A DNA stretch of 64,000 nucleotides from an uncultured Lachnospiraceae bacterium (GCA_964464905.1 CAYXHC010000001.1:1097-65096), one strand, 5' to 3'. Counted from the stretch's first letter, positions 396 to 33,924 are shown. Notes: generated from the sequence alone by a model not told the origin. Made by a program: numbers and translations.

Positions 396-1835
396 TCAGC
401 CGAAAATATCGAGCTTTTCCATGCTCTTTTCAATCGCCTTGTTTATAGACTTCTGAAGCTTGGCATAGAGGGTGGCGGGACTCGCATTTACGTCCTGAAG
501 GGTGGTGTATGCGGAACCCCAGTTGAAGAATACGCCAAGGTCGTAGCTTCTCTGCTCAAATATGATATCAAGCATTGCGCCGGATTCCTCGTCACGGGAG
601 TAGCGGGACTTGAGCTGACCCTCGTAGTAGGCGGGAATGAGATAGTCGGATCCCTTTGCAGCCATGGCTTCAACGATGATGCTGGTGGTGTAGGGATCTT
701 CGCAGTTAAGACCAACGGTCATAACGCAGGAGGAAACGGCTATGTAGGAATAGTAACGCTTCTGATCGGAGTTCTGCTTGGGGAAGGGGACGATGCCGAA
801 ATCTTCTTCGTTTTCGCGGAAGCCGCGGGCGTGAGCGATGACCTCGGTCGCAAAGAGGGTTCTTGCTTCCTGGAAAATGAGACGCGCCTGATTGGAGTTA
901 TCGTAGCATTCGGTGTCACCCATTATGAGAACGAGCTTTTCAAAGGCGTTTACGAAAGCCTCGGAACCCCAGGCAATGGCGGGAACGCCGTCTTTGTCGA
1001 TCTCAACTAACTTGAGACCTGCAGACTGCCAGAATGCGGGATAGTTTTCGCTGTGACCTGCAATGCCGAAAATATCGGTGCCGCTGTCGGCAACTCCGTT
1101 TGCGTTAACGTCTTCTTTGACTATGTTGCCCATTTCGTACATCTTATCCCAGGTCCACTCGTTGTTGTTGACGAGGTCGTAGGGACTTTCGAGACCTGCA
1201 TTTTCGATCATAGACTTGGTGAAGTATACGCACCAGATACATTCCTTGTCGGAAAGGGCGATATCGCCGGAAATCATATAGTGTAATCCGCCGAGAGCGA
1301 GCTGATCGGTGCAGTCGCTGTTCCACCAGGCTTTGTCGAGGTTGATATAGTCGAATTCTTCGATGGGATAGCAGTATCCGGAACCTACCGCTGTTGCGGA
1401 GTAGCTCATATTGTTAAAGCAGATGTTGTAGTCCTGAGTGTTTGCATCAACGTCGGTCTTGAAAAGATTGTAAACAGACTCGCCCATTGACGCGGTGGCT
1501 TCGCTGATCTCGATGCCGAGGAGATCTTCAACCGCACGGTTGCGCTCGTAGACTGCCTGTTCGTAAGCATCGTCTGAGGGCTCGTCAAAGTCGCAGAGAG
1601 TGTAATTGTATGTAAGTATGTCGGGGGTGAGTATGGTGAATGCCATACCGTCAAACTTTTCGTTGGGGATCTCAAGAACGTCCTTTTGAGTATCGGCGTT
1701 TTCAGTCTCCGTGCTGCCGGTACCGGTGTCTGCAACGTCGCCCGTGCCCTCGCCGCCGTCAGCGGGATCGGAGCAGGCTGCCAGCGGAACCGTGATCATA
1801 AGAAGCACGAGCAGTAAACTTAATAATTTTCGCAT
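396..1835 (-). CDS. Extracellular solute-binding lipoprotein, LplA/LipO-like (SBP paralog 1)
   Basis: ORF track gives 396..1847. I moved the start to ATG 1835 (MRKLLSLLLVLLMITVPLAAC) because GGAGG sits 5 nt upstream. The lipobox is L-A-A-C, followed by a Gly/Thr/Asp-rich linker. The protein is about 60-65% identical by eye to the next two paralogs, e.g. WWNSDCT.QLALGG.HYM.SGDIALSDKECIW and YYEGQLKSRYSRDEESG.MLDIIF. Confidence 0.85.
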   Translation of the reverse strand: MRKLLSLLLVLLMITVPLAACSDPADGGEGTGDVADTGTGSTETENADTQKDVLEIPNEKFDGMAFTILTPDILTYNYTLCDFDEPSDDAYEQAVYERNRAVEDLLGIEISEATASMGESVYNLFKTDVDANTQDYNICFNNMSYSATAVGSGYCYPIEEFDYINLDKAWWNSDCTDQLALGGLHYMISGDIALSDKECIWCVYFTKSMIENAGLESPYDLVNNNEWTWDKMYEMGNIVKEDVNANGVADSGTDIFGIAGHSENYPAFWQSAGLKLVEIDKDGVPAIAWGSEAFVNAFEKLVLIMGDTECYDNSNQARLIFQEARTLFATEVIAHARGFRENEEDFGIVPFPKQNSDQKRYYSYIAVSSCVMTVGLNCEDPYTTSIIVEAMAAKGSDYLIPAYYEGQLKSRYSRDEESGAMLDIIFEQRSYDLGVFFNWGSAYTTLQDVNASPATLYAKLQKSINKAIEKSMEKLDIFG

Positions 1836-1873
1836 AATTACCTCCAATGTTTTTGTTATAACTGTACAATTTA

Positions 1874-1879
1874 ATGATA
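1874..1879 (-). promoter_or_regulatory. Probable -10 box (TATCAT) of the SBP1 promoter, inside a 15-nt block shared with the SBP2 promoter
   Basis: Plus-strand TTAATGATACAGCAT (1871-1885) is identical to 3575-3589 upstream of SBP2. On the gene strand it reads ATGCTGTATCATTAA. No good -35 hexamer is present. TGTGAA repeats lie just upstream (see findings). Confidence 0.5.
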
Positions 1880-2040
1880 CAGCATCACAGGCGGCAATAT
1901 GTGAACGAAAATAAAACTAATCATCAATATTGTGAAAATAATATTTCAAATATGTGAATAGAATTTCAAAAAGATTGAAAATCAGCGGAAGGAAGCCTTT
2001 GTCGCGTTTTGACGATCGGGAGGGGGATGACTTTTTGGGA

Positions 2041-2069
2041 AAACAAAAACCGGCAGAGAGATCTGCCGG
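2041..2069 (-). terminator. Rho-independent terminator after SBP paralog 2
   Basis: Stem CCGGCAGA (2050-2057) / TCTGCCGG (2062-2069) with loop GAGA. On the minus strand it is followed by TTTTTGTTT (plus-strand A-run 2041-2049). Confidence 0.8.
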
Positions 2070-2081
2070 TTTTATTATGTT

Positions 2082-3560
2082 GATCTTAGAGACCGAGCTT
2101 TTCGAACGCCTTTTCGATCTGCTTGTTGGTCTGCTTTTCTACCTTAGCGTAGAGGGAAGCGGGGTTAACGTCTACGCTCTTGAGGGAGGAGTACGCGGAG
2201 CCCCAGTTGAAGAATACGCCGAGGTCGTAGCAACGGTTAGCAAAGATGATGTCGAGCATTTCGCCGGACTCTTCGTCACGGGAGTAGCGGGACTTGAGCT
2301 GACCTTCGTAGTAAGCGGGCATAAGGATCTCGGAACCCTTGGCAGCCATAGCTTCGAGAATGATGCTGGTCTGGTAGGGGCTTGCGCAGTCCTTACCAAC
2401 GGTCATAACGCAGGAGTTAACTGCGATATAGGAGTAGTAGGTGTCAATGTCAGAGCTGTACTTGGGATAAGGAAGGATACCGAAGTCGTATTCGTTTTCA
2501 CGGTAGTCGCGAACGAAAGCGATAACCTCGGTTCCGAAGAGGCACTTACCTTCCTTAAGGCAGGTGGTGATGTGCGCAACAGCGTCGGAAACGGTGGAGG
2601 TGGTGGTCCAGTTTACGTTTTCGGTGTCGCCCATGAGCTCAACGATATCTTCGAATACGTTAACGAACTGTTCGGAGTTCCAGTTGATCTTGGGTGTGCC
2701 TGCTTCGTCAAGGGAAGCGAGGGTGAGACCTGCGGATTCCCAGCTTGCAGGGAAGTTTTCGCCGTGTGTAACGAAACCGTAGATGTCGCCGGAGTCGAGA
2801 GCGCCGGAGCCGTTTTCGTCAGAGGTAGCGGTCATAGCCATTTCGTGCATCTTGTCCCAGGTCCATTCGTTGTTCTTAACGAGCTGGTAGGGATCTTCGA
2901 GGCCCTTGTACTTTTCAATGAGTTCCTTGATGAAGTAAACAGCCCAGATACATTCCTTGTCGGAAAGGGCGATGTCGCCGGAGAGCATGTAGTGCATGCC
3001 GCCGAGAGCGAGCTGCTCGGTGCAGTCGCTGTTCCACCAGGACTTGTCGAGATCGATGTAATCGAACAGGTCAAGCTCGTAGCAGAGGCCGGCGCCGGTA
3101 GCGGTGCAGGAGTACTCCATCTGGTTGAAGGTTACGCCGTAGTCGCCGGTGTTAGCTTCAACGGCAGTCTTGAAGAGGGTGTAAACTTCGGAGCCGATGC
3201 CGGAGGAAACCTCGGTGATGGTGATGTTGAGGAGGTTCTCGACAGCGTCGTTACGCAGATAAAGAGCGTTTTCGTACATGTCTTCGGAAGGCTCGTCAAA
3301 ATCGGTTGCGGTGTAGTTATACGTAACTACGGTAGGAGTGAGAACTACGAATTCATAGCCGTCGAAGTCCTCTGCGGGGATCTCGAGAACGTCAGAAACG
3401 TCACCCGTGCCGGAAGTTTCAGTGCCGGTACCGGTGTTTGCAGCGTCTCCCGTGCCCTCGCCGTCATCAGCGGGATCGGAGCAGGATGCAAGCGGTACTG
3501 CGAGCATGAGAACTACAAGCAGTAAGCTTAAGAATTTTTTCATAAATACCTCCAAGTATT
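2082..3560. repeat. Direct repeat copy 1 (1479 bp) of a tandem duplication with period 1695 bp
   Basis: 2082..3560 matches 3777..5255. The translated ORFs in several frames on both strands are letter-identical in the ORF track: 485 aa, 75 aa and 80 aa on the minus strand, and 72 aa plus the 317-aa tail on the plus strand. The boundary bases differ (2081 t vs 3776 c; 3561 c vs 5256 t). Confidence 0.9.
2086..3543 (-). CDS. Extracellular solute-binding lipoprotein, LplA/LipO-like (SBP paralog 2, duplicate copy 1)
   Basis: ORF track gives 2086..3720. I placed the start at ATG 3543 (MKKFLSLLLVVLMLAVPLASC) with GGAGG 5 nt upstream. The lipobox is L-A-S-C. The 485-aa product is identical to that of 3781..5238. 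Confidence 0.85.
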   Translation of the reverse strand: MKKFLSLLLVVLMLAVPLASCSDPADDGEGTGDAANTGTGTETSGTGDVSDVLEIPAEDFDGYEFVVLTPTVVTYNYTATDFDEPSEDMYENALYLRNDAVENLLNITITEVSSGIGSEVYTLFKTAVEANTGDYGVTFNQMEYSCTATGAGLCYELDLFDYIDLDKSWWNSDCTEQLALGGMHYMLSGDIALSDKECIWAVYFIKELIEKYKGLEDPYQLVKNNEWTWDKMHEMAMTATSDENGSGALDSGDIYGFVTHGENFPASWESAGLTLASLDEAGTPKINWNSEQFVNVFEDIVELMGDTENVNWTTTSTVSDAVAHITTCLKEGKCLFGTEVIAFVRDYRENEYDFGILPYPKYSSDIDTYYSYIAVNSCVMTVGKDCASPYQTSIILEAMAAKGSEILMPAYYEGQLKSRYSRDEESGEMLDIIFANRCYDLGVFFNWGSAYSSLKSVDVNPASLYAKVEKQTNKQIEKAFEKLGL

Positions 3561-3577
3561 CTATGTTACTACTGTTA

Positions 3578-3583
3578 ATGATA
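3578..3583 (-). promoter_or_regulatory. Probable -10 box (TATCAT) of the SBP2 promoter
   Basis: Same 15-nt block as at 1871-1885. It lies about 35 nt upstream of ATG 3543. Three TGAA-type repeats with an 11-bp period start 23 nt further upstream, at 3606, 3617 and 3628. Confidence 0.5.
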
Positions 3584-3702
3584 CAGCATATTGCGTCTGT
3601 AATGATGAATAATGTGTGAACGTCGTGTGAATTCATGACGAAGGGGGCGGGAGGTAGTCTTTTTTTGCGATGAAGTGCCTGAATGTATTTTCGCAATAGA
3701 AA

Positions 3703-3742
3703 CAAAAAAAGGAAATACACACGCCGATGCGTGTGTATTTCC
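3703..3742 (-). terminator. Rho-independent terminator after SBP paralog 3
   Basis: 14-bp stem GGAAATACACACGC (3711-3724) / GCGTGTGTATTTCC (3729-3742) with loop CGAT. On the minus strand it is followed by TTTTTTTGTTT. Confidence 0.85.
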
Positions 3743-3776
3743 CTTTATCGGAATAAAAATCTAAACCGTTAGAATC

Positions 3777-5255
3777 GATCTTAGAGACCGAGCTTTTCGA
3801 ACGCCTTTTCGATCTGCTTGTTGGTCTGCTTTTCTACCTTAGCGTAGAGGGAAGCGGGGTTAACGTCTACGCTCTTGAGGGAGGAGTACGCGGAGCCCCA
3901 GTTGAAGAATACGCCGAGGTCGTAGCAACGGTTAGCAAAGATGATGTCGAGCATTTCGCCGGACTCTTCGTCACGGGAGTAGCGGGACTTGAGCTGACCT
4001 TCGTAGTAAGCGGGCATAAGGATCTCGGAACCCTTGGCAGCCATAGCTTCGAGAATGATGCTGGTCTGGTAGGGGCTTGCGCAGTCCTTACCAACGGTCA
4101 TAACGCAGGAGTTAACTGCGATATAGGAGTAGTAGGTGTCAATGTCAGAGCTGTACTTGGGATAAGGAAGGATACCGAAGTCGTATTCGTTTTCACGGTA
4201 GTCGCGAACGAAAGCGATAACCTCGGTTCCGAAGAGGCACTTACCTTCCTTAAGGCAGGTGGTGATGTGCGCAACAGCGTCGGAAACGGTGGAGGTGGTG
4301 GTCCAGTTTACGTTTTCGGTGTCGCCCATGAGCTCAACGATATCTTCGAATACGTTAACGAACTGTTCGGAGTTCCAGTTGATCTTGGGTGTGCCTGCTT
4401 CGTCAAGGGAAGCGAGGGTGAGACCTGCGGATTCCCAGCTTGCAGGGAAGTTTTCGCCGTGTGTAACGAAACCGTAGATGTCGCCGGAGTCGAGAGCGCC
4501 GGAGCCGTTTTCGTCAGAGGTAGCGGTCATAGCCATTTCGTGCATCTTGTCCCAGGTCCATTCGTTGTTCTTAACGAGCTGGTAGGGATCTTCGAGGCCC
4601 TTGTACTTTTCAATGAGTTCCTTGATGAAGTAAACAGCCCAGATACATTCCTTGTCGGAAAGGGCGATGTCGCCGGAGAGCATGTAGTGCATGCCGCCGA
4701 GAGCGAGCTGCTCGGTGCAGTCGCTGTTCCACCAGGACTTGTCGAGATCGATGTAATCGAACAGGTCAAGCTCGTAGCAGAGGCCGGCGCCGGTAGCGGT
4801 GCAGGAGTACTCCATCTGGTTGAAGGTTACGCCGTAGTCGCCGGTGTTAGCTTCAACGGCAGTCTTGAAGAGGGTGTAAACTTCGGAGCCGATGCCGGAG
4901 GAAACCTCGGTGATGGTGATGTTGAGGAGGTTCTCGACAGCGTCGTTACGCAGATAAAGAGCGTTTTCGTACATGTCTTCGGAAGGCTCGTCAAAATCGG
5001 TTGCGGTGTAGTTATACGTAACTACGGTAGGAGTGAGAACTACGAATTCATAGCCGTCGAAGTCCTCTGCGGGGATCTCGAGAACGTCAGAAACGTCACC
5101 CGTGCCGGAAGTTTCAGTGCCGGTACCGGTGTTTGCAGCGTCTCCCGTGCCCTCGCCGTCATCAGCGGGATCGGAGCAGGATGCAAGCGGTACTGCGAGC
5201 ATGAGAACTACAAGCAGTAAGCTTAAGAATTTTTTCATAAATACCTCCAAGTATT
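3777..5255. repeat. Direct repeat copy 2 (1479 bp)
   Basis: See copy 1. The repeat covers the stop codon, the whole CDS, the RBS and 17 nt of 5' UTR. It does not include the promoter or the terminator. Confidence 0.9.
3781..5238 (-). CDS. Extracellular solute-binding lipoprotein, LplA/LipO-like (SBP paralog 3, duplicate copy 2)
   Basis: ORF track gives 3781..5274. I placed the start at ATG 5238 with the same GGAGGTATTT-ATG context as copy 1. The protein is identical to 2086..3543. Confidence 0.85.
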   Translation of the reverse strand: MKKFLSLLLVVLMLAVPLASCSDPADDGEGTGDAANTGTGTETSGTGDVSDVLEIPAEDFDGYEFVVLTPTVVTYNYTATDFDEPSEDMYENALYLRNDAVENLLNITITEVSSGIGSEVYTLFKTAVEANTGDYGVTFNQMEYSCTATGAGLCYELDLFDYIDLDKSWWNSDCTEQLALGGMHYMLSGDIALSDKECIWAVYFIKELIEKYKGLEDPYQLVKNNEWTWDKMHEMAMTATSDENGSGALDSGDIYGFVTHGENFPASWESAGLTLASLDEAGTPKINWNSEQFVNVFEDIVELMGDTENVNWTTTSTVSDAVAHITTCLKEGKCLFGTEVIAFVRDYRENEYDFGILPYPKYSSDIDTYYSYIAVNSCVMTVGKDCASPYQTSIILEAMAAKGSEILMPAYYEGQLKSRYSRDEESGEMLDIIFANRCYDLGVFFNWGSAYSSLKSVDVNPASLYAKVEKQTNKQIEKAFEKLGL

Positions 5256-5496
5256 TATCGTGATAGATGTACAAAATAATTTTACAACTAAACCGTTTAC
5301 AAAAGGTTAATAAATTGTGAACGAAAGATTAACATAGTGAGATAATGAATAAAAAAACAAACTAATTGAGAAAAAATCCTCTGCCAATGGTATAACTTGA
5401 CGATTATCTTAAACAAATCTTAAGGTTTTGGGTTATTTTATCTTAATAATGTTTGTGGTACAATTGAAGCGTGAAATGAAAAAGGAGACGATATCT

Positions 5497-6201
5497 ATGT
5501 ACAACATACTCGTTTGCGATGACGAAAAGGATATAGTGTCGGCGCTTGAAATATATCTTTCGGCTGAGGGATACCGCGTTTATAAGGCGTATGACGGCGA
5601 GGAGGCGATAAGCACCGTGAGAACGGAAGAGATACATCTCGTGCTTCTGGACGTTATGATGCCGATGACGGACGGGCTCCGCGCTATGAGGCGCCTGCGT
5701 GAGTTTTCAAACGTGCCCGTTTTGCTGCTGACGGCGAAAAGCGAGGAAACGGACAAAATAGCGGGACTGAACCTGGGCGCCGACGATTACATAACGAAGC
5801 CTTTCAATCCGGTTGAGGTTGCGGCGCGGGTGAAGGCGAATCTGCGTCGTTATATGCAGCTTGGCGGCGGTGACGTGAAGGCTCTTGAAAGCGTTTACAG
5901 CGTTTCCGGCATCGTGATGGACGATAAAGCTCACACCGTTACGAGAGACGGCGAGCCTATATCGCTGACTCCCACCGAATACGATATACTGAAACTGTTT
6001 CTGATGCATCCCGACGAGCTGATGACGCCGAAGCGCATTTACGGCGCGGTCTGGGGCGGCAATTTCATCGGTGGCGAGGGGACCGTTGCCGTTCACATAC
6101 GTCATCTTCGCGAAAAACTTGAATACGATCCGTCCTCACCGAGATATCTTCGCGTTGTGTGGGGGCAGGGGTATAAGCTGTCAAGCATCGTTGGTGTTTG
6201 A
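5497..6201 (+). CDS. OmpR/PhoB-family response regulator (receiver plus winged-helix domain)
   Basis: ORF track gives 5428..6201. I placed the start at ATG 5497 (MYNILVCDDEKDIV) with AAGGAG 9 nt upstream. Receiver motifs are DD, LLDVMMP.DG and LLLTAK. The C-terminal end reads ...HIRHLREKLE...VWGQGYKL, typical of OmpR-type DNA-binding domains. Confidence 0.9.
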   Translation: MYNILVCDDEKDIVSALEIYLSAEGYRVYKAYDGEEAISTVRTEEIHLVLLDVMMPMTDGLRAMRRLREFSNVPVLLLTAKSEETDKIAGLNLGADDYITKPFNPVEVAARVKANLRRYMQLGGGDVKALESVYSVSGIVMDDKAHTVTRDGEPISLTPTEYDILKLFLMHPDELMTPKRIYGAVWGGNFIGGEGTVAVHIRHLREKLEYDPSSPRYLRVVWGQGYKLSSIVGV

Positions 6202-6233
6202 TATAAAAACATAAATATTAAGGAAAGGAACCG

Positions 6234-8156
6234 ATGAAAATGAAAAAACTTCAATGCTACAGATGGGCGCGAGTTGCGGCAGTGCTGCTGGCGGCTGTGA
6301 CGCTTACTGTTTTCTTTGGATCTGTCTTGGGGATCGTCGCTGCAGCAGATCTGGGACTCTATACACAAAGCTATGACAACGCAAAGGAAATGGCAGTGAC
6401 GGACGTGCTCTACGGCAATGCCTACCTTATAGTGAACGCCTACCGTGACAGCTATGTGCTTGGGTATTACTCACATTCACAGGCAAAAGCGCAGATGCAG
6501 GAAGCCGTGTTCCGCAAAAATCTTGATTTTGAGCTTTGGCGCGGGGAAGATATGCTCTATTCGTCTTATTCCGGTGTCGTTCCCGAGTCTGACGCTGTGT
6601 ATGAGCTTGGCGTGGCAGAGTACGGCGAGGGTGAATACAGCGTGCGTTTTTATCTTCTCAAAAACACGAAATGTTACGACGAGATCTATTTTATGGAGCA
6701 TTGGCTCGACAAGCTTTACGAAATGCGGTTCGCGCTCATCGTGATCTGCGTTTTGTCGTTGATCCTGTCGTTTTTGACGTGGCTTTTCGCCGTTTCTGCG
6801 GCGGGCAAGCGCCTCACCCTTGACGGATACGCAAGCGGCGTGCTGACGATGCTTGACCGCGTCCCTCTTGATCTGCTGCTGGCTTTTGCTGCAGCGGCTG
6901 TGTTTGTCGAGGCTCTCATATACGACTTCAACCACGACATAGGAGACATATTTACCGCCGTGCTTCTCGGCGTGTACGTTTTCGTTGATTCCGTATTCGT
7001 CACTCTTTTGTCGATGACCGTGAAGGTGCGTGTCGTAACGAAGACGGCACTTGATAACAATATCACGGCGATGCTTCTCAGACTGGGGTATAAGCTTGTA
7101 GTCCGGATATGGGAATGTATAAAGTCGGGAGCGAGGCTGATGGTGAAAATCGTTCGGTGCGTTCCCATGTTCTGGCGGACGCTGACTGCAACGATCGCCA
7201 TGACGGTGATAAGCTTCGTTATTACGTGTCTGGCTGCCGGAAACAGCGACGCGGCAATATTCCTTTTCGTGCTGTTTTGGCTTGCGGTAACGGTGTGGCT
7301 CTGCTTCTCCGCCTGGAATATGACGATACTCCGTCGGGGCGCCAAGCGTATCGCCGAAGGTGACCTTTCCTATCGCATCGACACGAAATATCTTCTTTTT
7401 GATTTTAAGCGTCACGCCGATGACCTTAACAGTATCAAAAACGGTATGGCAACGGCGGTGGAGGAACGGATGCGCGGCGAGATGTTCAAAACCGAGCTTA
7501 TCACCAACGTGTCCCACGATATAAAGACGCCTCTGACTTCAATAATAAATTACGTGGATCTTTTGAAAAAATGCGGAGTGGAAAATGAAGAAGCAAGAGG
7601 GTATATCGAGGTGCTCGACCGCCAATCCGCGAGACTCAAAAAGCTGACGGAGGATCTTGTAACTGCCTCGAAGGCGTCGTCGGGCGTCGTTAAAGCGGAG
7701 CTTAAGCCCTGCGATCTCGGGATCTTCGTTGAACAGACGGCGGGCGAATATGAAGAAAAGCTTGCGAAGGCGGATCTTAAGCTCGTGGTGTCAACGCCCG
7801 ACTATCCCGTTACCGTGGAGGCTGACGGCAAGCTTCTCTGGCGCATCTTCGATAACCTTATGAACAACGCTTTGAAATATTCGCTTCCGGGGTCGCGGGT
7901 GTACCTGTCTCTTAAAGAAAATGAAAGAGAAGGAACGGTGACGGTGACGAATGTGTCCCGCGAGCCGATAACGCGCGACGGGGGAGAGCTTACGGAAAGG
8001 TTCGTTCGCGGCGACGATTCCCGACATACGGAAGGCTCGGGACTCGGACTCTCTATCGCCAAAAGCTTCACGGAGCTTCAGAGAGGTACTTTTGACGTAA
8101 CGGCGGACTATGATCTGTTCCGCGTGACGGTGAAGTTTCCTTTGCCGGAGGAGTGA
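6234..8156 (+). CDS. Multi-pass membrane sensor histidine kinase (HisKA plus HATPase_c)
   Basis: The H-box is ELITNVSHDIKTPLTSI. The N box is NLMNNALKYS and the G boxes are GSGLGLSIAKS. TM1 is followed by an extracytoplasmic stretch of about 130 aa. Several further hydrophobic helices precede a HAMP-like linker. The gene starts 33 nt downstream of the response regulator stop. Confidence 0.9.
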   Translation: MKMKKLQCYRWARVAAVLLAAVTLTVFFGSVLGIVAAADLGLYTQSYDNAKEMAVTDVLYGNAYLIVNAYRDSYVLGYYSHSQAKAQMQEAVFRKNLDFELWRGEDMLYSSYSGVVPESDAVYELGVAEYGEGEYSVRFYLLKNTKCYDEIYFMEHWLDKLYEMRFALIVICVLSLILSFLTWLFAVSAAGKRLTLDGYASGVLTMLDRVPLDLLLAFAAAAVFVEALIYDFNHDIGDIFTAVLLGVYVFVDSVFVTLLSMTVKVRVVTKTALDNNITAMLLRLGYKLVVRIWECIKSGARLMVKIVRCVPMFWRTLTATIAMTVISFVITCLAAGNSDAAIFLFVLFWLAVTVWLCFSAWNMTILRRGAKRIAEGDLSYRIDTKYLLFDFKRHADDLNSIKNGMATAVEERMRGEMFKTELITNVSHDIKTPLTSIINYVDLLKKCGVENEEARGYIEVLDRQSARLKKLTEDLVTASKASSGVVKAELKPCDLGIFVEQTAGEYEEKLAKADLKLVVSTPDYPVTVEADGKLLWRIFDNLMNNALKYSLPGSRVYLSLKENEREGTVTVTNVSREPITRDGGELTERFVRGDDSRHTEGSGLGLSIAKSFTELQRGTFDVTADYDLFRVTVKFPLPEE

Positions 8157-8267: not shown

Positions 8268-8329
8268 AATAGTAGCCGGAGGGCGCCCTCCGTTATGATA
8301 GGTTCGCAGAACCTATCATAATAAACCTT
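8268..8329 (+). promoter_or_regulatory. Conserved 62-nt two-hairpin leader element, copy A
   Basis: 58 of 62 nt are identical to 12123-12184. It contains a 16-nt perfect palindrome, CGGAGGGCGCCCTCCG (8277-8292). It also contains a 13-bp perfect-stem hairpin, TTATGATAGGTTC-GCA-GAACCTATCATAA (8293-8321). No U-tract follows the hairpin. Confidence 0.8.
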
Positions 8330-8379
8330 TATGGCGGGAAGTTCCGACGGCACGAAAATTTATTTTGGAGGAACTTTTC

Positions 8380-9237
8380 ATGAAAAAGATTCTTGCTCTC
8401 GTAATGGTAGTTGCAATGCTCGCATGCTTCGCTACCGCTACATCCGCTGCAGAAATGAAGTTTGTTGAAGAAGCAAGCTTTGATTTCAGCACCACCGAAG
8501 GCCTCAAGGGCTATACCGCAAGCTGGCCCGGTAACGACCTCATGTGCAACGCTGCTGCTGCAGAGGTTGCTGAAGGCGTTATCGTTGACGGCGCATTCGT
8601 TGCAGGCACCATGGGCTTCGTTGTAGACGAAGTATTTGATGCTACCAACGGTATCAAGATCAAGATGGACATTACCATCGACAAGACCAAGGTTGGCGGT
8701 TCTCCCTGGTTCCAGGGCGTTGCTTCCTTCTTTAATGCAGACGGCAAGTCCGCTGAATTCCTCGCTCTCGCTGGCGAAGAGTTCGAGCACTCCTACGATG
8801 CATACTACCTCAACTACAAGGGTTCCGGTACTCACTTCCAGGCACATACCGGTGACCTCGGCGAAGGCGCTACCGGCAACAATGTTGTTTGGGGCGGCGA
8901 CGTTGCTGAAGACCTCGTTACCGACGATGCTCCCACCTGGAGCGGCACTGTAGAATTCATCGTTGTTCCCGCTGAAACCGGCGCTACCGTTACCATCCTT
9001 GTTGACGGCGTTGACATCGGTCTCCCCAACAACCCCGAATTCGCAAACTTCCTCTCTGACGAAATGCTCGTTACCATCGGTGCTACTCACTACGGCGACT
9101 ATGCACTCGCTTCCACCATTGATAACGTTGTTATCTACACCATGCAGGAAGAAGCTACTCAGACCGGTTTCGCTACTGTTGCTCTCGCAATCGTTGCAAT
9201 CGGTTCCGGCGCTTACATCGTATCCAAGAAGCACTAA
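8380..9237 (+). CDS. Secreted ConA/LamG-like (DUF1080-like) beta-sandwich protein with a C-terminal QTG-TM-KKH anchor
   Basis: ORF track gives 8365..9237. I placed the start at ATG 8380 with GGAGGA 8 nt upstream. The signal peptide is MKKILALVMVVAMLACFATATSA/AE. The C-terminus is EEATQTGFATVALAIVAIGSGAYIVSKKH (motif, hydrophobic helix, basic tail). The fold call is by eye from the beta-rich pattern ending ...STIDNVVIY. Confidence 0.7.
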   Translation: MKKILALVMVVAMLACFATATSAAEMKFVEEASFDFSTTEGLKGYTASWPGNDLMCNAAAAEVAEGVIVDGAFVAGTMGFVVDEVFDATNGIKIKMDITIDKTKVGGSPWFQGVASFFNADGKSAEFLALAGEEFEHSYDAYYLNYKGSGTHFQAHTGDLGEGATGNNVVWGGDVAEDLVTDDAPTWSGTVEFIVVPAETGATVTILVDGVDIGLPNNPEFANFLSDEMLVTIGATHYGDYALASTIDNVVIYTMQEEATQTGFATVALAIVAIGSGAYIVSKKH

Positions 9238-9390: not shown

Positions 9391-10170
9391 ATGAAAAAGA
9401 TTCTTGCTCTCGTAATGGTAGTTGCTATGCTCGCATGCTTCGCTACCGTTGCAAACGCTGCTGCTCCCGAAGGACAGATTGCGTACTACACCTTTGACGC
9501 TGCTGACGAAGCAGGCCTCACCGTAAACGGCGACAACGCTACCTACGCTGACGGCGCTGTTACTCTCGGCGACGCTACTTACCTCACTGCGGACATCGAT
9601 CTTTCCGGTGTTACCGCTATGACCGTTGCTCTCAAGGTTAAGATCACCGATACTGATGCTAACTGGGGCTTTGAGATCACCTCTGAAGAGGCTCACTCCT
9701 GGCCGGCTGAGCATTACATCGGCTGCCTCCTCAACGGCAGTGCTGTGATCGAACGCTACAACAACACCGACGGTCGTCCCAATTCCGCTTCCGCTACTAT
9801 CGCGGTTGACGAATGGGTTGAGCTCGTAGTTGTTCTTCCTGAAGACGGCTCCATCGTTCTTTATGCTGACGGCGCAGAAGTTGCTAACGTTCCTCAGACC
9901 GAAGGCTTCGACCTCGCTATCGCAAACTGCATCGGCGAAACTCCCGTATTCCAGATTGGTAAGGCTAACTGGGGCGAAGGCGAATACGCTGCAGGCACCT
10001 CCATCGACACTTTTGCAGTTTACAACACTGCTCTCTCTGCTGACGAAGTAGCTACCGCTCTCGAAGCTCCCGCAGCAGACGAAGAAGCTGCTCAGACCGG
10101 TTTCGCTACCGTTGCTCTCGCAATCGTTGCAATCGGCTCCGGCGCTTACATCGTGTCTAAGAAGCACTAA
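9391..10170 (+). CDS. Secreted LamG-domain protein with a C-terminal QTG-TM-KKH anchor
   Basis: GGAGGA lies 7 nt upstream of the start. The signal peptide is MKKILALVMVVAMLACFATVANA/AA. The LamG-like hallmark is ...IGKANWGEGEYAAGTSIDTFAVYNTALSADEV, resembling the common ...D.V.IYNRALSA.EI ending. The C-terminus is EEAAQTGFATVALAIVAIGSGAYIVSKKH. Confidence 0.75.
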   Translation: MKKILALVMVVAMLACFATVANAAAPEGQIAYYTFDAADEAGLTVNGDNATYADGAVTLGDATYLTADIDLSGVTAMTVALKVKITDTDANWGFEITSEEAHSWPAEHYIGCLLNGSAVIERYNNTDGRPNSASATIAVDEWVELVVVLPEDGSIVLYADGAEVANVPQTEGFDLAIANCIGETPVFQIGKANWGEGEYAAGTSIDTFAVYNTALSADEVATALEAPAADEEAAQTGFATVALAIVAIGSGAYIVSKKH

Positions 10171-10325: not shown

Positions 10326-11675
10326 ATGAAAAAGATACTTGCTCTTTTACTTGCCGTTATGATGCTGGCAGCTCTCGTTGCCTGCGACGATGGCAGTCTG
10401 CCTCCCGTTGACGGAGAAAGCGATAGCGAAGGCACGGGAACGGGCGAAGGCACCGAAACTGAGGCAGAATCCGAAACCGAAGAAGAAGACGAGGACTATG
10501 TCCCTGACTTTGAAGCGAAATACGGCGGCTGCGTCGGTGTGGGCGTTGAGTCCGGCTCCGCTTACTTCGATAACCTTAAGGTTGTGTCTAAGCAGACCGA
10601 TAAGAAGGAGCTCTACTACGATGAGCTCGAGGGCGAGCTTCCCGTTCTCACTTACGTTACGGGTGCTGAAGCCGATTGGGCTGTTGCTGTTGACCCCACC
10701 GAGGATGAAGATGAGGATGATCCCAACCACGCTCTCGGATACACGGGCTCTTCCGCTTCTATGGTGACCTTCGGTTCCTCCAACTGGAATTACTATCAGT
10801 ATTCCATGAAGGTGTATCCCGTTGACGACACCACAGTTATCGATCTTTATTTCTGCGTTACCGATGCTGATAACTATTTCGTCGTTTCCGTTGGCGGAAA
10901 CGATGGCGATTCCCTTTGCTATCAGGTAGTCGGCGGCGAGAAGACGGCTGTTGCGCCCAGTGTTTACGCTCCCGTTGAGATCGGTGAATGGACCTCCGTC
11001 GGCATTACCGTTGAACGTGAGACCATCGATATCTACATCGGCGGCACCAAGCGCTTCTCTCTCTTTAATGATGAATTCGAATACAGCATGACCATCGCAA
11101 ACAGAGCTACCGTTAACGCTCCTTACTGCGCTTCCTGGGAAACTCCCGGCTCCATTAACGACGGTATGTATCCTGACGCTACCTACGCTTCCGTTTCCAA
11201 CGGTACCGCTTACGGCTCCTGGAGCATGGCAGATATATCCGAGACCATTTCTTACGAATGGGACGAGGCTGTGACTGTTGACGGTATCGGTCTCTTCTTC
11301 TGGCAGGACAAGGAAACCCGTGAATACTGGCTCGAAAACGGCGGTATCCACTCTGCTTCCTACTATACCATCCAGTATCTCGATGAAAACGGCGACTACG
11401 TAGACGTTGAAAATGCTGTTGGTCTTGAGGTTCTCGATGACGTTATGAACCAGACCTTCTTCGATGCTGTTACCACCACGTCAATTCAGGTAACTCTCTA
11501 TAAGTTCACCGAAGAGGAGGATGCTACCTACAGATTCTCCGAATATAAGGAGTATGAAGCAAACGGCGGCGATGTCGATGCTGAAGATGCACCTACGGAT
11601 CCTTCCATCCGCGGACTCGGACTCTTTGAGTTTGAAGTGTACGCAGCAGGCACAGTTGAAAGACCCGAGGAATGA
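10326..11675 (+). CDS. Lipoprotein with an acidic linker, a ConA/LamG-like domain and a C-terminal discoidin/galactose-binding-like domain
   Basis: The signal and lipobox are MKKILALLLAVMMLAALVAC. A Glu/Asp/Thr-rich linker follows. FDNLKV and ...IDIYIGG... strands resemble DUF1080/LamG. The C-terminal half (ASWETPGSINDG...GSWS...ISYEWDEAVTVDGIGLFFWQD...) looks like an F5/8-type-C carbohydrate-binding module. Domain calls are by eye. Confidence 0.6.
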   Translation: MKKILALLLAVMMLAALVACDDGSLPPVDGESDSEGTGTGEGTETEAESETEEEDEDYVPDFEAKYGGCVGVGVESGSAYFDNLKVVSKQTDKKELYYDELEGELPVLTYVTGAEADWAVAVDPTEDEDEDDPNHALGYTGSSASMVTFGSSNWNYYQYSMKVYPVDDTTVIDLYFCVTDADNYFVVSVGGNDGDSLCYQVVGGEKTAVAPSVYAPVEIGEWTSVGITVERETIDIYIGGTKRFSLFNDEFEYSMTIANRATVNAPYCASWETPGSINDGMYPDATYASVSNGTAYGSWSMADISETISYEWDEAVTVDGIGLFFWQDKETREYWLENGGIHSASYYTIQYLDENGDYVDVENAVGLEVLDDVMNQTFFDAVTTTSIQVTLYKFTEEEDATYRFSEYKEYEANGGDVDAEDAPTDPSIRGLGLFEFEVYAAGTVERPEE

Positions 11676-12122: not shown

Positions 12123-12184
12123 AATAGCAGCCGGAGGGCGCCCTCCGTTATGATAGGTTCTGCGAACCTATCATAATAAACCTT
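12123..12184 (+). promoter_or_regulatory. Conserved 62-nt two-hairpin leader element, copy B
   Basis: It has the same palindrome (12132-12147) and the same 13-bp stem (12148-12160 / 12164-12176) as copy A. The 3-nt loop is TGC here, the reverse complement of GCA in copy A. One further substitution is at 12128. Confidence 0.8.
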
Positions 12185-12222
12185 ATCATTAAGCCGGAAC
12201 GGGGGAAGGGCAGATCATTTCG

Positions 12223-12285: not shown

Positions 12286-14748
12286 ATGACAACTTTCAAG
12301 AGACTTATGAGCGTGCTGCTTGTTCTCTGTATGTTGTCCGTAGCTTTCGTTTCCTGCTCTAACAAGGGCGGCGACGCGAAGGTCGGTAACTATACATATA
12401 ACAGCTACGCAAGCAGTCTCGGAACCAACTGGAACCCCCACACGTGGGAAGTAAGTTCCGATGACGCTATCCTCGGCTACGTAAGCTCCCCCTTCTGCAC
12501 GATGCAGGTTTCCGATTCCGAAAACGGCGTCTACCAGTGGGTGTATGAGATGGCTACCTCTATCGAGGACGTAACCAAGGATCACCAGGACGATCTCACC
12601 AAGTATGCTGTAACACTTCCCGAAGGCCAGTCGGCTTCCGAGACCACCGAAGGTTACGTTTACGAGATCAAGCTCAATGAAGATGCTAAGTGGGAAAACG
12701 GCACTCCTATCAATGCTGACACCTACATCTACTCCATGAAGGCTCTTCTTGACCCCGCTATGAAGAACTACCGCGCTAACCTCTACTATGCAGGCGAATC
12801 TGCAGTAGCAGGCGGTAATGCTTACTACTATAGCGGAGACATTGCATGGGATACCGATCTCATGGGTGCTGAAACCCTCGAAACCATCGTTAAGGGCGAA
12901 GACGGCACTTACACCACCTCTGATGGCAAGCCCATCGCTGTAGCTCTCACCTCCGCGCTTGATTGGCTCAGCGGATACGCTCTTTCCGACTACGTTGACG
13001 CTTACGGCGAAGCATACTTCGGCGTTGCAGATTACGAAACCCTTTCTGCTATGGCAGTTGGCGGCTTTGTACCCGTAACCGACGAAGTTATCGACCTTAT
13101 GGAAGGCGTTATCACCGCTGTTGAAGCTTGGGGCGAAACCAGAGCTGACGTAGCTCAGTACTTCTACTCCGGTACTCAGATGCCTGAGGCTACCTACGAC
13201 GTTGTAGGCTGCTACAAGGTTGACGATTACACCATTCGTTATGTATGCCAGACATACCTCGACAAAAACTACTTCCTCACCTCCTGCACCTCTACCTGGC
13301 TCGTATATGAAGATCTCTACGAAGCAGGAAAGGACACCACCGGTACTCTCGTAACCACTAACTACAACTCTTCTCCTGAAACCACCATGTCCTACGGTCC
13401 TTACAGAATCGAGTCCATGCAGAACGACAAGCAGATCGTTTACGTTCAGAATGAGAACTGGTACGGCTACGAAAAGGAAGGCGACTACCTCGTATCCTAC
13501 ACTCCTTACCTCGTTGACGGTAAGAACGTACAGCGCTACATGACCACCAAGATCGTTATCAACGTTATGGATAACGACGCTGCAAAGCTCGCGTTCCTTA
13601 AGGGTGACCTTGACGACTGGGCTCCCAGTGCAGACGACCTCGTTAACTACGCTATGAGCGAACAGCTCTACAAGGTTGACGAAACCTACACCATGTCCTT
13701 CTTCTTCAACACAGACGTTTCTATGCTCCAGGAGATGGATAACTCCAAGGGTAACATCAACTCCGTTGTTCTTTCAAACTACAACTTCCGTAAGGCATTC
13801 TCCCTTGCAGTTGACCGTACTGAGTTTGTAACCGCTACCGAAGGCTACAAGCCCGCTTACGCACTTATGAACAACCTCTACTTCTACGACGTATACAACG
13901 ATCCTAACTCCTCCTACAGAGGCTCTGATGAGGCTATGCAGGCAGTCTGCGATCTTTACGGCGTAAAGTACGGTGAAGGTACTCCTTATGCAACTCTCAA
14001 GGAAGCATACGACTCCATCACCGGTTACAACCTTACTGAAGCTAAGGCTCTCATGGCAACCGCTTGCCAGGAGCTCGTAGATGCAGGCCTCTACACCGCA
14101 GGTGAAGACATCACCATCCGTATCGGCTGGTCCAAGTCTGCTCTCACTTCTGCTGATAACAATCAGATCGCTCTTATGAACAAGTACATCAACGCTGCTG
14201 TTGAAGGATCCGGCTTCGGCAAGATCACTCTCGAAGGCGTTGGCTCCGTTGAAGACCGTTACGGCGACGTTCCCGCAGGTAACTTCGCAATCGGTTACGG
14301 CGCATGGGGCGGTGCTGCGTTCTATCCTTTCCGTAACTTCCAGGTTTACTGCGACACCGAGCAGTATGCAGGCCAGATCAATGAAATGGCATGCTGGGAT
14401 CCTTCCGTTGAAGAGCTCACTCTCACGGTAGACGGCAAGGAAGTAACTATGACATGGCAGGAATGGTCTCGTTCCATGACCGGTACCGGCCAGTTCGCAA
14501 CTGCAGACTTCTCCGTTAAGCTCGCTATCACGGCTCAGATGGAAAAGCTCTTCCTTGAAAAGTACTACAGAATCCCCTTCTGCGGAACTACTATATGCTC
14601 TATGCTCTCCTACAAGTGCAACTACTACACCGATGAATACAACATCATGTACGGTTTCGGCGGACTTGAGCTTATGACCTACAACTACACCGATGAAGAA
14701 TGGGCAGAATTCTGCGCTGAACAGAATGGCGATATTAAGTACGAATAA
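12286..14748 (+). CDS. ABC transporter substrate-binding lipoprotein, family 5 (Opp/Dpp-type), unusually long at 820 aa
   Basis: The signal and lipobox are MTTFKRLMSVLLVLCMLSVAFVSC. By eye the layout is family-5: ...YVYEIKLNEDAKWENGTPINADTYIYSMKALLDP..., then ...YGPYRIES...VYVQNENWYG... It is followed by Opp-type permeases and ATPases. Confidence 0.8.
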   Translation: MTTFKRLMSVLLVLCMLSVAFVSCSNKGGDAKVGNYTYNSYASSLGTNWNPHTWEVSSDDAILGYVSSPFCTMQVSDSENGVYQWVYEMATSIEDVTKDHQDDLTKYAVTLPEGQSASETTEGYVYEIKLNEDAKWENGTPINADTYIYSMKALLDPAMKNYRANLYYAGESAVAGGNAYYYSGDIAWDTDLMGAETLETIVKGEDGTYTTSDGKPIAVALTSALDWLSGYALSDYVDAYGEAYFGVADYETLSAMAVGGFVPVTDEVIDLMEGVITAVEAWGETRADVAQYFYSGTQMPEATYDVVGCYKVDDYTIRYVCQTYLDKNYFLTSCTSTWLVYEDLYEAGKDTTGTLVTTNYNSSPETTMSYGPYRIESMQNDKQIVYVQNENWYGYEKEGDYLVSYTPYLVDGKNVQRYMTTKIVINVMDNDAAKLAFLKGDLDDWAPSADDLVNYAMSEQLYKVDETYTMSFFFNTDVSMLQEMDNSKGNINSVVLSNYNFRKAFSLAVDRTEFVTATEGYKPAYALMNNLYFYDVYNDPNSSYRGSDEAMQAVCDLYGVKYGEGTPYATLKEAYDSITGYNLTEAKALMATACQELVDAGLYTAGEDITIRIGWSKSALTSADNNQIALMNKYINAAVEGSGFGKITLEGVGSVEDRYGDVPAGNFAIGYGAWGGAAFYPFRNFQVYCDTEQYAGQINEMACWDPSVEELTLTVDGKEVTMTWQEWSRSMTGTGQFATADFSVKLAITAQMEKLFLEKYYRIPFCGTTICSMLSYKCNYYTDEYNIMYGFGGLELMTYNYTDEEWAEFCAEQNGDIKYE

Positions 14749-14794
14749 TTCTGATAACTGAAATAATCATACTGAATACACCATAAAAAAGGCG

Positions 14795-14926
14795 GCAGGG
14801 GGGAATTTGATCCCCCCTGCTAACCTTGATTTTTCGGGTTGATGAAAATTGTTCCTTTTTTCGTTCGAGATCGTTCACTCCGACGTCCCGTTGGACGGGC
14901 ATTCCGAGCGGATCATCTCGAGCGAA
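14795..14926 (+). promoter_or_regulatory. Structured spacer between the SBP and permease genes (two hairpins)
   Basis: Hairpin 1 is GCAGGGGGGA (14795-14804) / TCCCCCCTGC (14811-14820). Hairpin 2 has outer stem TTCGTTCGAGAT (14860-14871) / ATCTCGAGCGAA (14915-14926, one G-U pair) and inner stem CCCGT-TGG-ACGGG. No clean U-tract follows either hairpin. Confidence 0.55.
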
Positions 14927-14984
14927 GAATCAACTATTTTTCACTCTATAATCTACCATCCCTTAAGCTAAGGAGAATAACGTT

Positions 14985-15950
14985 ATGACGAAATACGTTA
15001 TAAAAAGAATCCTTTTGATGTTCTTCACGCTGTTCGTTATTGTTACGATCGCGTTTACGCTTATAAGACTGCTCCCTCAGCAGCCGCCGGACGGACTCGA
15101 CGCGAACCAGCGAAAAGCAGTTCTTGATCGTTGGAGAGCTCTTGGTTATGAAGAGCCCATTCCTACGCAGTTTGCGATCTACCTGAAGAATATCTTCACA
15201 AACGGAGACTTCGGCACGTCCTGGTCTATTGACTACCGTGAGCCTGCCCTTGATCTTCTTTTGTCCAGACTTCTTCCCACCGTTATCGTAAACCTTTATT
15301 CACTGCTGTTCTCCATCCCGATAGGTATCGGCCTCGGCATTTATGCAGCAGTCAAGAAAAATAAATGGCAGGACTCCTTCATAAGCACTATCGTTATGGT
15401 GTTTATTTCCGTGCCCTCCTACGTTTATGCCTTCCTCGTTCAGTATTTCTTCTATTATAAGTGGAACCTTCTGCCTCAGCTCGTTTCGTCTCTTGCGGAT
15501 GCGGGCGGTTCCTGGTTCTCCTGGAAGATGTTCGTAAGTATGATCTCCCCCGTGCTTGCGCTCTCCTTCGGTGAGATCGCAGGTCTTTGCCGTTTCACAA
15601 GAGCAGAGCTTACGGAGACCCTTACCTCCGACTATATGCTGCTCGCACGCACGAAGGGACTTACCCGCGCGCAGGCAACCACCCGTCACGCACTTAAAAA
15701 TGCAATGGTGCCGATCCTCCCCATGATCATTTCCAGCTTCGTTGGCATCCTCGGCGGTTCTATGATCATCGAACAGATCTTCTCCGTTCCCGGCGTTGGT
15801 CAGCTCTATATGCGTTCCATCAATCTGCTTGACTACGACGTATTTATGGTCGATACTGTATTCTACACGTTTATCGGACTTCTTGCCGGCATCGTCGTTG
15901 ATATAAGCTACGGCTTCATCGATCCGAGAATCAGAATGGGAGAAAAATAA
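14985..15950 (+). CDS. ABC transporter permease, OppB/DppB-like
   Basis: 321 aa, six predicted TM segments. The EAA-type loop reads LARTKGLTRAQATTRHALKNAMVPILP. AAGGAG lies 9 nt upstream of the ATG. Confidence 0.9.
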   Translation: MTKYVIKRILLMFFTLFVIVTIAFTLIRLLPQQPPDGLDANQRKAVLDRWRALGYEEPIPTQFAIYLKNIFTNGDFGTSWSIDYREPALDLLLSRLLPTVIVNLYSLLFSIPIGIGLGIYAAVKKNKWQDSFISTIVMVFISVPSYVYAFLVQYFFYYKWNLLPQLVSSLADAGGSWFSWKMFVSMISPVLALSFGEIAGLCRFTRAELTETLTSDYMLLARTKGLTRAQATTRHALKNAMVPILPMIISSFVGILGGSMIIEQIFSVPGVGQLYMRSINLLDYDVFMVDTVFYTFIGLLAGIVVDISYGFIDPRIRMGEK

Positions 15951-15951
15951 T

Positions 15952-17604: not shown

Positions 17605-17607
17605 GTC

Positions 17608-32623: not shown

Positions 32624-32636
32624 AATGAGTCCTGCC

Positions 32637-33797: not shown

Positions 33798-33880
33798 GTG
33801 AAGCCTCCTTGGCACTTTTTATAAGTCAATTATATATCAACGGTATCGGAACAGTAAAGACGGTTATACGATTTTTTAAT

Positions 33881-33912
33881 AAAAATATCCCGTCCGCTTT
33901 CGAGGACGGGAT
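33881..33912 (-). terminator. Rho-independent terminator after SBP paralog 4
   Basis: Stem ATCCCGTCC (33887-33895) / GGACGGGAT (33904-33912). On the minus strand it is followed by ATTTTTATTAAAAAA. Confidence 0.75.
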
Positions 33913-33924
33913 ACAAAGCGTCGG

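Follow-up and report, generated by a model that had tools for sequence, protein, structure and literature searches.

A 64,000-nucleotide stretch of DNA from an uncultured Lachnospiraceae bacterium (GCA_964464905.1, CAYXHC010000001.1:1097-65096), referred to here as the window, carries near its start three genes, S1 to S3, for lipoproteins with a solute-binding-protein (SBP) fold, beside a pair of genes for a response regulator and a histidine kinase. S1 (396-1835, minus strand) encodes 479 amino acids (aa) and is 62% identical to S2 and S3; S2 (2086-3543, minus strand) encodes 485 aa, and S3 (3781-5238, minus strand; 485 aa) is its exact copy. All three proteins begin with a lipobox signal (PLAAC/S in S1, PLASC/S in S2 and S3), which is followed by a Gly/Thr/Asp-rich linker of about 30 residues. 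Each gene has a strong GGAGG ribosome-binding site and, at its 3' side, a terminator-like G+C-rich hairpin with a T-run (381-354 for S1, 2073-2046 for S2 and 3746-3707 for S3). One flank of the array is formed by the 5' end of rplM (ribosomal protein L13; 1-86, minus strand), identified by its translation and running off the window, with a consensus promoter (TTGACA-17-TATAAT) at 203-175 on the minus strand; in the closest relative (locus L001, GCA_045588245.1), the array is likewise followed by Ribosomal_L13 and then S9. The initial annotation had placed the array between rplM and the regulator/kinase pair, and this layout is essentially correct. It had also described three lipoproteins with terminators of their own, and the three genes and their hairpins are indeed present, although they encode only two distinct proteins.

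The identity of S2 and S3 forms part of an exact direct repeat of 1479 nt (2082-3560 and 3777-5255; 100% DNA identity), which includes 17 nt in front of the start codon (ATG) and 4 nt beyond the stop codon. Perfect identity over this length, in a 67.8-kb contig of a public assembly that is probably a metagenome-assembled genome, could mean that the second copy is an assembly artefact and that only two S genes exist. We regard this as highly improbable, given that the copies have different promoters and terminators, lie in unrelated upstream and downstream flanks and are separated by a unique 216-nt spacer. In addition, the independent assembly of a 98%-identical strain (L097, GCA_964543685.1), colinear with window positions 10812-3506, presents S3, the spacer and the start of S2 in the order seen in the window before its contig stops 38 nt into the second copy. 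Because this order was recovered independently, the duplicate is real and common to both strains, and a contig break at the second copy is what one would expect where short reads are assembled across a genuine repeat. The zero divergence between the copies, as against 2% between the strains, suggests either gene conversion limited to the coding region or selection for dosage.

The response regulator (5497-6201, plus strand) combines a receiver domain with a Trans_reg_C domain and is OmpR/VanR-like, scoring 248.8 bits against the VanR-ABDEGLN model, below the cut-off of 350. The kinase (6234-8156, plus strand; HisKA and HATPase_c) has VanS as its best NCBIfam model, also below cut-off. Both genes are divergent from S3 and are transcribed separately from the S genes. 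Six transmembrane (TM) helices are predicted for the kinase, with TM1 at residues 17-35, an extracytoplasmic domain at 36-168, close to the residues 37-165 given earlier for it, and five further helices up to residue 358. In the model, the ectodomain consists of helices followed by a four-stranded sheet (pLDDT about 66-89), and a comparison of the sensor region with solved structures returned no significant match (best E 0.13). This sensor half is rare, as a word-indexed and hence sensitivity-limited search of 5.8 billion clusters retrieved nine homologues. Among the kinase homologues, the ectodomain is the least conserved part, while the TM bundle and the juxtamembrane motifs are better kept, a pattern that points to sensing at the level of the membrane.

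The intergenic region between S3 and the regulator gene contains three TTAAGAT direct repeats (5407-5446, minus strand; the last two 11 bp apart), defined from a six-genome alignment and adjoining the extended -10 element of the regulator gene (TGnTACAAT). Every one of the seven kinase-bearing loci has the core repeat (L012 being a duplicate of L001), whereas 170 other loci lack it, and within the window the stretch 5407-5446 is its sole zero-mismatch site. These repeats are a candidate binding site and would be the signature of an autoregulated OmpR-family regulator. A search of the window found no repeat of this type in front of S1 or S2, nor before any LamG gene or the Opp operon described below; the only other matches were chance-level ones with two mismatches inside coding regions. 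An 8-mer common to the three S upstream regions (CGTTCACA) was discarded as independent evidence, since the genes are tandem paralogues.

Fold and genomic neighbourhoods of the S family

S1 scores 22.9 bits against SBP_bac_8 (PF13416), below the cut-off of 27. Neither S2 and S3 nor the distant paralogue S4 has a match in Pfam, NCBIfam contains no match to any S protein, and a PDB sequence search with S2 returned nothing relevant; relatives with about 33% identity do carry PF01547 or PF13416. The AlphaFold model of S2 (91 homologues; pLDDT 91.2, pTM 0.86), in which residues 17-48 form a disordered linker stretch with pLDDT below 50, gave 983 PDB matches at E ≤ 1e-3 in Foldseek. The top ones are all CUT1 sugar-binding proteins, namely Lmo0181, MalE, the trehalose/maltose-binding protein TMBP, UspC, GacH, CbpB and YcjN, at E values of 1e-14 to 1e-11 and identities of 11-15%. 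As modelled, S2 is a complete two-lobed type-II periplasmic-binding-protein fold of the CUT1 sugar-binding type. Six tryptophans and several acidic residues are invariant in 41 S1-type sequences (those at least 41% identical to S2), a pattern no more than suggestive of sugar binding. The lipoproteins had been called LplA/LipO-like; despite the modelled CUT1-type fold, this name finds no support from family models, as the S proteins match neither DUF3502 nor any other specific family at E ≤ 0.01, with no direct comparison to LplA or LipO included. In Bacillus subtilis, LplA and LipO carry a C-terminal DUF3502 domain.

The family is not confined to this locus. At E ≤ 1e-30 it comprises 2,223 clusters at 50% identity, and its named sources are all uncultured Clostridia, Eubacteriales or Oscillospiraceae from animal guts or anaerobic digesters. 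With the 41-sequence S1-type alignment as query, 80 family loci were collected from species-representative genomes and more were added by exact protein look-up, giving 153 family open reading frames (ORFs) in 93 loci with a total length of 1.44 Mb. A strict lipobox pattern is found in 124 of 140 full-length family ORFs, and inspection shows an N-terminal signal with a Cys in most of the others. Of 82 groups, 32 contain at least two family genes (near-identical loci merged), with six in a row in L082.

All ORFs of these loci were compared with MalFG, UgpAE and YcjOP of E. coli as seeds and with the BPD_transp_1 profile, a procedure that did pick up a canonical CUT1 system in L056. In none of the 93 loci does a CUT1 permease pair lacking its own binding protein lie beside a family gene, and the 64-kb window as a whole encodes no CUT1-type permease. 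Two candidates for partner-less pairs were rejected: the BPD_transp_1 permeases near the family gene of L016 belong to a potABCD operon, and the CUT1 system of L056, 7 kb from the family gene, has its own 428-aa binding protein. Other BPD_transp_1 proteins near family genes belong to Opp-type systems (the window and L035) or are weak matches (L045 and L075). No multi-pass membrane protein family recurs beside the S genes in the family loci; the alternative membrane partners considered came only from unrelated families (YitT, Lgt, PHO4, MatE, Rnf, QueT, ECF-S and ICMT-like). The missing local permease is therefore the rule for the family and not a peculiarity of this locus, and the S family is a divergent, uncharacterised branch of the sugar-binding-protein fold, very large and systematically permease-less. 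The initial annotation had reported that no ABC permease or ATPase was nearby, which holds for the CUT1 type; a complete Opp/Dpp-type importer does, however, lie 4.1 kb beyond the kinase.

A fourth paralogue within the window, S4 (33925-35427, minus strand; 29% identity), had been described as an orphan too, and it has no permease nearby. It is a 500-aa lipoprotein (signal MIAC/G) with its own terminator at 33885-33914, and its neighbours are two genes for cytoplasmic GFO/IDH/MocA oxidoreductases (31538-33815), one for an AraC regulator of the cupin-AraC type in divergent orientation (35512-36366) and one for a GH29 fucosidase (36512-37993). Distant genomes likewise combine S4-type genes with an oxidoreductase or a fucosidase, again without any permease. 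Among S1-type loci, L028, L029 and L031 have a cytoplasmic cupin-AraC regulator divergent to the S gene, and in L006 such a regulator lies directly upstream of the S gene on the same strand; none of these regulators has a TM segment. Regulators of this cytoplasmic type sense intracellular effectors. With cytoplasmic one-component regulators and cytoplasmic catabolic enzymes next to family genes, entry of the ligand into the cell is implied.

Downstream of the kinase, the window carries three genes for secreted Laminin_G_3/ConA-like proteins on the plus strand: LamG1 (8380-9237), LamG2 (9391-10170) and LamG3 (10326-11675), the last of them a lipoprotein. LamG genes are the most widely conserved neighbour of S1-type genes and lie within 10 kb in 9 of 21 S1-type groups (41-98% identity), whichever regulator is present. 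In L002-4, L007-8 and L022, two LamG genes are clustered with Lgt and a CPBP/Rce1-like protease.

Beyond them follows the Opp/Dpp-type ABC importer (12286-21023, plus strand), which is complete, with an 820-aa binding protein of family 5 (SBP_bac_5; 12286-14748), two permeases (14985-15950 and 15952-17604) and two ATPases (17608-19767 and 19767-21023), and after it a GH43+CBM6 gene, which suggests that the imported substrate is an oligosaccharide rather than a peptide. Parts of the cassette are unusually large: in addition to the 820-aa binding protein, the second permease has 550 aa, and the first ATPase has 719 aa and an ABC domain split by an insertion. The binding-protein gene was found in 80 gut-metagenome loci (L098-L177; 34-72% identity), in which the five-gene order is kept wherever the contig is long enough. 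The cassette is self-contained, and its closeness to the S array is lineage-specific.

The orthologous kinase and regulator adjoin S genes only in the window, in the 98%-identical strain and in five related genomes (L001 and L013-L016). The S proteins of these kinase-bearing relatives are 66-80% identical to S2, compared with 41-57% for S1-type loci with other neighbours. All kinase-bearing genomes have the order LamG, kinase, regulator, S genes, rplM in common, so the adjacency of the kinase amounts to one evolutionary observation among syntenic relatives. Counted by non-redundant groups, the two-component system is adjacent in 6 of 21 S1-type groups and in 6 of 82 groups overall.

In the closest relative, the place of the second S2 copy of the window is taken by a gene pair that lies between two S genes (L001, 11676-13927). 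The first gene encodes an extracytoplasmic function (ECF) sigma factor (TIGR02937; score 54.5 bits, cut-off 42.9); the second, immediately downstream, encodes a 557-aa protein with a short cytoplasmic N-terminus, one TM helix and a domain of the S family (E 1e-102 against S2). This protein (P0146) is the only fusion of such an anti-sigma-like type in the loci and in the best 150 family representatives; another family protein, P0250, is TM-anchored with a copper-amine-oxidase-N-like stalk.

Possible functions of the S lipoproteins

We tentatively favour, and give a little less than an even chance, the reading that the S lipoproteins are surface glycan-capture proteins, made in high dosage, which supply a transporter whose genes lie elsewhere in the genome, the two-component system acting as a local regulator. 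In this hypothetical scenario, (i) the high dosage of S1-S3 would result from three genes, of which two are identical and all have a promoter, a strong ribosome-binding site and a terminator of their own; (ii) the lipoproteins would pick up an oligosaccharide set free at the cell surface, its probable source being a plant or host glycan that contains arabinose or fucose; (iii) they would hand this ligand to a CUT1-type permease pair with a shared ATPase, both encoded elsewhere; and (iv) the VanRS-like two-component system would control transcription in the neighbourhood and would regulate itself through the three TTAAGAT repeats in the intergenic region that it has in common with S3, a cytoplasmic AraC-type regulator taking its position in other lineages. 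Transport is preferred because the sugar-binding fold is intact, cytoplasmic regulators and enzymes lie beside family members, the layout is one of high dosage with several promoters, and the type of regulator changes while the S gene stays. That sugar ABC importers share ATPases encoded elsewhere is established (PMC7658222; CuaABC, PMC10384115).

Several points weigh against this proposal. It is weakened by the fact that a search of the window and the family loci turned up no partner permease for the S family; the 1.44 Mb of family neighbourhoods contain a single CUT1 permease pair, so that CUT1 permeases are strikingly rare there. Should the family depend on permeases of this type, a small number of pairs would have to serve a great many binding proteins, a scale of sharing that is not known from CUT1 systems. 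The terminators by themselves say little, since binding-protein genes with terminators are also found within ordinary clostridial ABC operons (PMC9045158). Regulation of S1 and S2 by the two-component system finds no support in the repeats. Finally, the L001 fusion has the layout of an anti-sigma sensor, a hint that the domain of the S family may be usable for signalling.

Signalling is the core of one alternative, in which S lipoproteins, once loaded with ligand, would bind to the ectodomain of the kinase (aa 36-168) and thereby turn on the regulator, which would then activate S3, the LamG genes, the Opp-type importer and GH43, in parallel to CuaD-CuaSR, XylFII-LytS/YesN and HptA-HptSR. We consider such three-component sensing unlikely, but it has points in its favour: permease-less S genes lie directly beside a kinase with a 130-residue extracytoplasmic domain, and a binding protein, a two-component system, an ABC importer and a glycoside hydrolase together resemble clostridial three-component loci (PMC10384115; reviewed in PMC8050422). 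All six related genomes preserve the divergent orientation, yet these are syntenic and count once, and the orthologous kinase is not nearby in 15 of 21 S1-type groups and in 60 of 61 other groups. Near a kinase homologue of 25% identity (L095) there is likewise an S-family gene, at a distance of 2 kb; here the abundance of the family makes chance proximity plausible, and another locus, L096, has no S gene nearby. The sigma-factor-linked membrane fusion of an S-family domain in the closest relative could be read in the same direction. Against these points stand the ectodomain being the least conserved part of the kinase, the VanS/VanR-like cores in place of the YesM/LytS and AraC-type pair of known Firmicute sugar systems (PMC10384115), and upstream regions of the LamG genes and the Opp operon that lack the regulator-type repeat, LamG1 and the Opp operon having a different leader element. 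Moreover, known co-sensor binding proteins are single-copy, as opposed to three separately transcribed genes here, and SBP genes adjacent to kinase genes need not be functionally linked (PMC11113362). Kinase adjacency is thus weak evidence for co-sensing at this locus. Of the two alternatives offered in the initial annotation, a transporter elsewhere fits the family-wide pattern better than signalling to the kinase does, multi-copy and separately promoted S genes fit a regulated output better than a single-copy co-sensor, and the neighbouring pair is more likely the local regulator of the S genes than a proven signalling partner.

The lipoproteins could also bind glycans at the surface independently of transport, as tethers or receptors that work with the LamG-like proteins and functionally resemble the SusD/E/F-type lipoproteins of Bacteroidetes. 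Permeases are absent throughout the family, arrays reach six paralogues (L082), LamG genes accompany 9 of 21 S1-type groups regardless of the regulator, and some clusters also carry Lgt and the CPBP/Rce1-like protease; the disordered linker of about 30 residues would hold the domain off the membrane, and the S proteins score below curated SBP family cut-offs. This role nevertheless appears rather improbable to us, as the adjoining cytoplasmic AraC regulators and oxidoreductases imply entry of the ligand into the cell and the fold is that of a complete two-lobed binding protein. To our knowledge, no lipoprotein with an SBP fold has an established, purely tethering role in Firmicutes. A broader view, to which we likewise give a low probability, is that the S family is a modular extracellular glycan receptor without a dedicated ABC permease, occurring as free arrays beside LamG genes, coupled to a kinase here and fused in an ECF anti-sigma-like manner in the nearest relative. 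By far less probable is that the S lipoproteins serve as extra substrate receptors of the neighbouring Opp/Dpp-type importer. This importer lies 7 kb from the array in the window and in L001, in L035 a cassette of this type is immediately preceded, on the same strand, by two S-family genes, and L099 has one S-family gene 0.8 kb upstream; against this, the cassette always has its own family-5 binding protein of 800-880 aa. Because only one of the 80 metagenome cassette loci has a clear S neighbour (L099; a second match is weak), we reject a link between the S family and the cassette. We know of no precedent for a family-1-type binding protein paired with Opp-type permeases.

Among the closest known counterparts is the CuaD-CuaSR system of Ruminiclostridium cellulolyticum (PMC10384115), which likewise has a permease-less lipoprotein of sugar-binding fold beside a membrane kinase and a regulator; genes for an ABC importer and a carbohydrate-active enzyme also lie in the vicinity. 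In contrast to the three separately transcribed and divergent genes described here, cuaD is single and forms one operon with cuaS and cuaR. CuaS has two TM helices and an ectodomain of about 265 aa, whereas the present kinase has six TM helices, a 130-aa ectodomain and a VanS-like core; CuaR is of the YesN/AraC type and the present regulator of the OmpR/VanR type. The importer of our locus is of the Opp type, has its own binding protein and lacks the regulator-type repeat. Related three-component systems are XylFII-LytS/YesN of Clostridium beijerinckii and HptA-HptSR of Staphylococcus aureus (cited in PMC8050422).

For the preferred reading, capture on behalf of a distant transporter, orphan binding proteins that share transporters offer another comparison. 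They too comprise many paralogues without membrane components, scattered or in arrays, and are expanded in particular lineages. In Streptococcus pneumoniae, AmiA, AliA and AliB share AmiCDEF, and Borrelia has multiple OppA proteins. Such proteins belong to the peptide-binding family 5 or to the TTT family and occur mostly in Proteobacteria and streptococci, while the S family is divergent, CUT1-like and found in gut Clostridia; of TTT-family orphans there are hundreds in Rhodoplanes and Bordetella (PMC5994714). Canonical CUT1 systems (MalEFGK, UgpBAEC, YcjNOP and LplABC of B. subtilis) have in common with the S family the two-lobed type-II fold, the lipoprotein anchor and a binding protein of about 480-500 aa, and an ATPase encoded elsewhere is normal for the CUT1 systems of Firmicutes (PMC7658222). 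The S family differs from them in having no two adjacent permease genes of its own in the window and the 93 loci, in scoring below the SBP_bac_1 and SBP_bac_8 cut-offs and in sharing only 11-15% identity with solved CUT1 binding proteins.

The L001 fusion, for its part, resembles the SigI/RsgI sensors of cellulolytic clostridia (PMC4711584, PMC10328401), in which an alternative sigma-factor gene is followed by a gene for a single-pass protein with a carbohydrate-binding module (CBM) as its extracellular part. The fusion differs in that its sensor module is an SBP-fold domain of the S family, in place of a CBM, GH or PA14 module, its sigma factor is of the ECF type (TIGR02937) and not SigI, and the window has no such fusion. 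Its short N-terminal segment matches no anti-sigma model.

Carbohydrate uptake in gut Firmicutes is usually annotated by the rule of one binding protein beside two permeases, which the S family systematically breaks. The transport capacity and substrate range of these uncultured Clostridia can consequently not be read from their operons. Either a great many receptors depend on a small number of permeases, or the fold has taken on a new use in surface binding or sensing, and both outcomes would change how polysaccharide-utilisation loci are defined in Gram-positive gut bacteria. The family-level pattern is in this respect more interesting than the locus as a candidate for kinase co-sensing.

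Neighbouring enzymes, LamG tails and a common leader element

The combination of an S-family gene with a GFO/IDH/MocA oxidoreductase gene, often together with GH29, is found in the window (31538-35427) and in L010, L011, L030, L072, L079 and L088, and hints at an oxidative glycoside pathway. The E. coli operon of the binding protein YcjN likewise encodes glycoside 3-dehydrogenases of the Gfo/Idh/MocA type.

In several unrelated genomes (L066, 8835-9782; L002; L007; L022), a gene for the prolipoprotein diacylglyceryl transferase Lgt directly adjoins S-family genes and may provide a dedicated lipidation enzyme for the expanded lipoprotein family. In three of these relatives (L002, L007 and L022), the LamG pair directly follows Lgt and the CPBP/Rce1-like intramembrane protease, a protease class that includes dedicated C-terminal sorting enzymes (MrtJ and MrtS models). 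In the window, LamG1 and LamG2 both end in QTGFATVALAIVAIGSGAYIVSKKH. The pattern of their C-termini, EEA[TA]QTG-FATVALAIVAIGSGAYIV-SKKH, bears a weak likeness to the sortase-B signal QVPTGV (E 0.02-0.05, below cut-off). Tail and protease may represent an undescribed pair of sorting signal and protease.

An element of about 60 nt is common to the 5' leaders of LamG1 (8275-8335, plus strand) and of the Opp-type binding-protein gene (12130-12190, plus strand), in each case downstream of a strong promoter. It contains two perfect palindromes, CGGAGGGC/GCCCTCCG and TATGATAGGTTC-N3-GAACCTATCATA. A search of positions 1-24000 with Rfam gave nothing above noise, this element included, and the element was found only in the strain of the window and the 98%-identical strain. 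Its 31-nt core occurs exactly twice, with 0 occurrences expected, and the RNA folding z-scores of the two copies are -3.0 and -3.7. The element may be either the operator of a dimeric repressor or a leader RNA. Its presence in both leaders implies that LamG1 and the Opp operon are co-regulated separately from the S genes.

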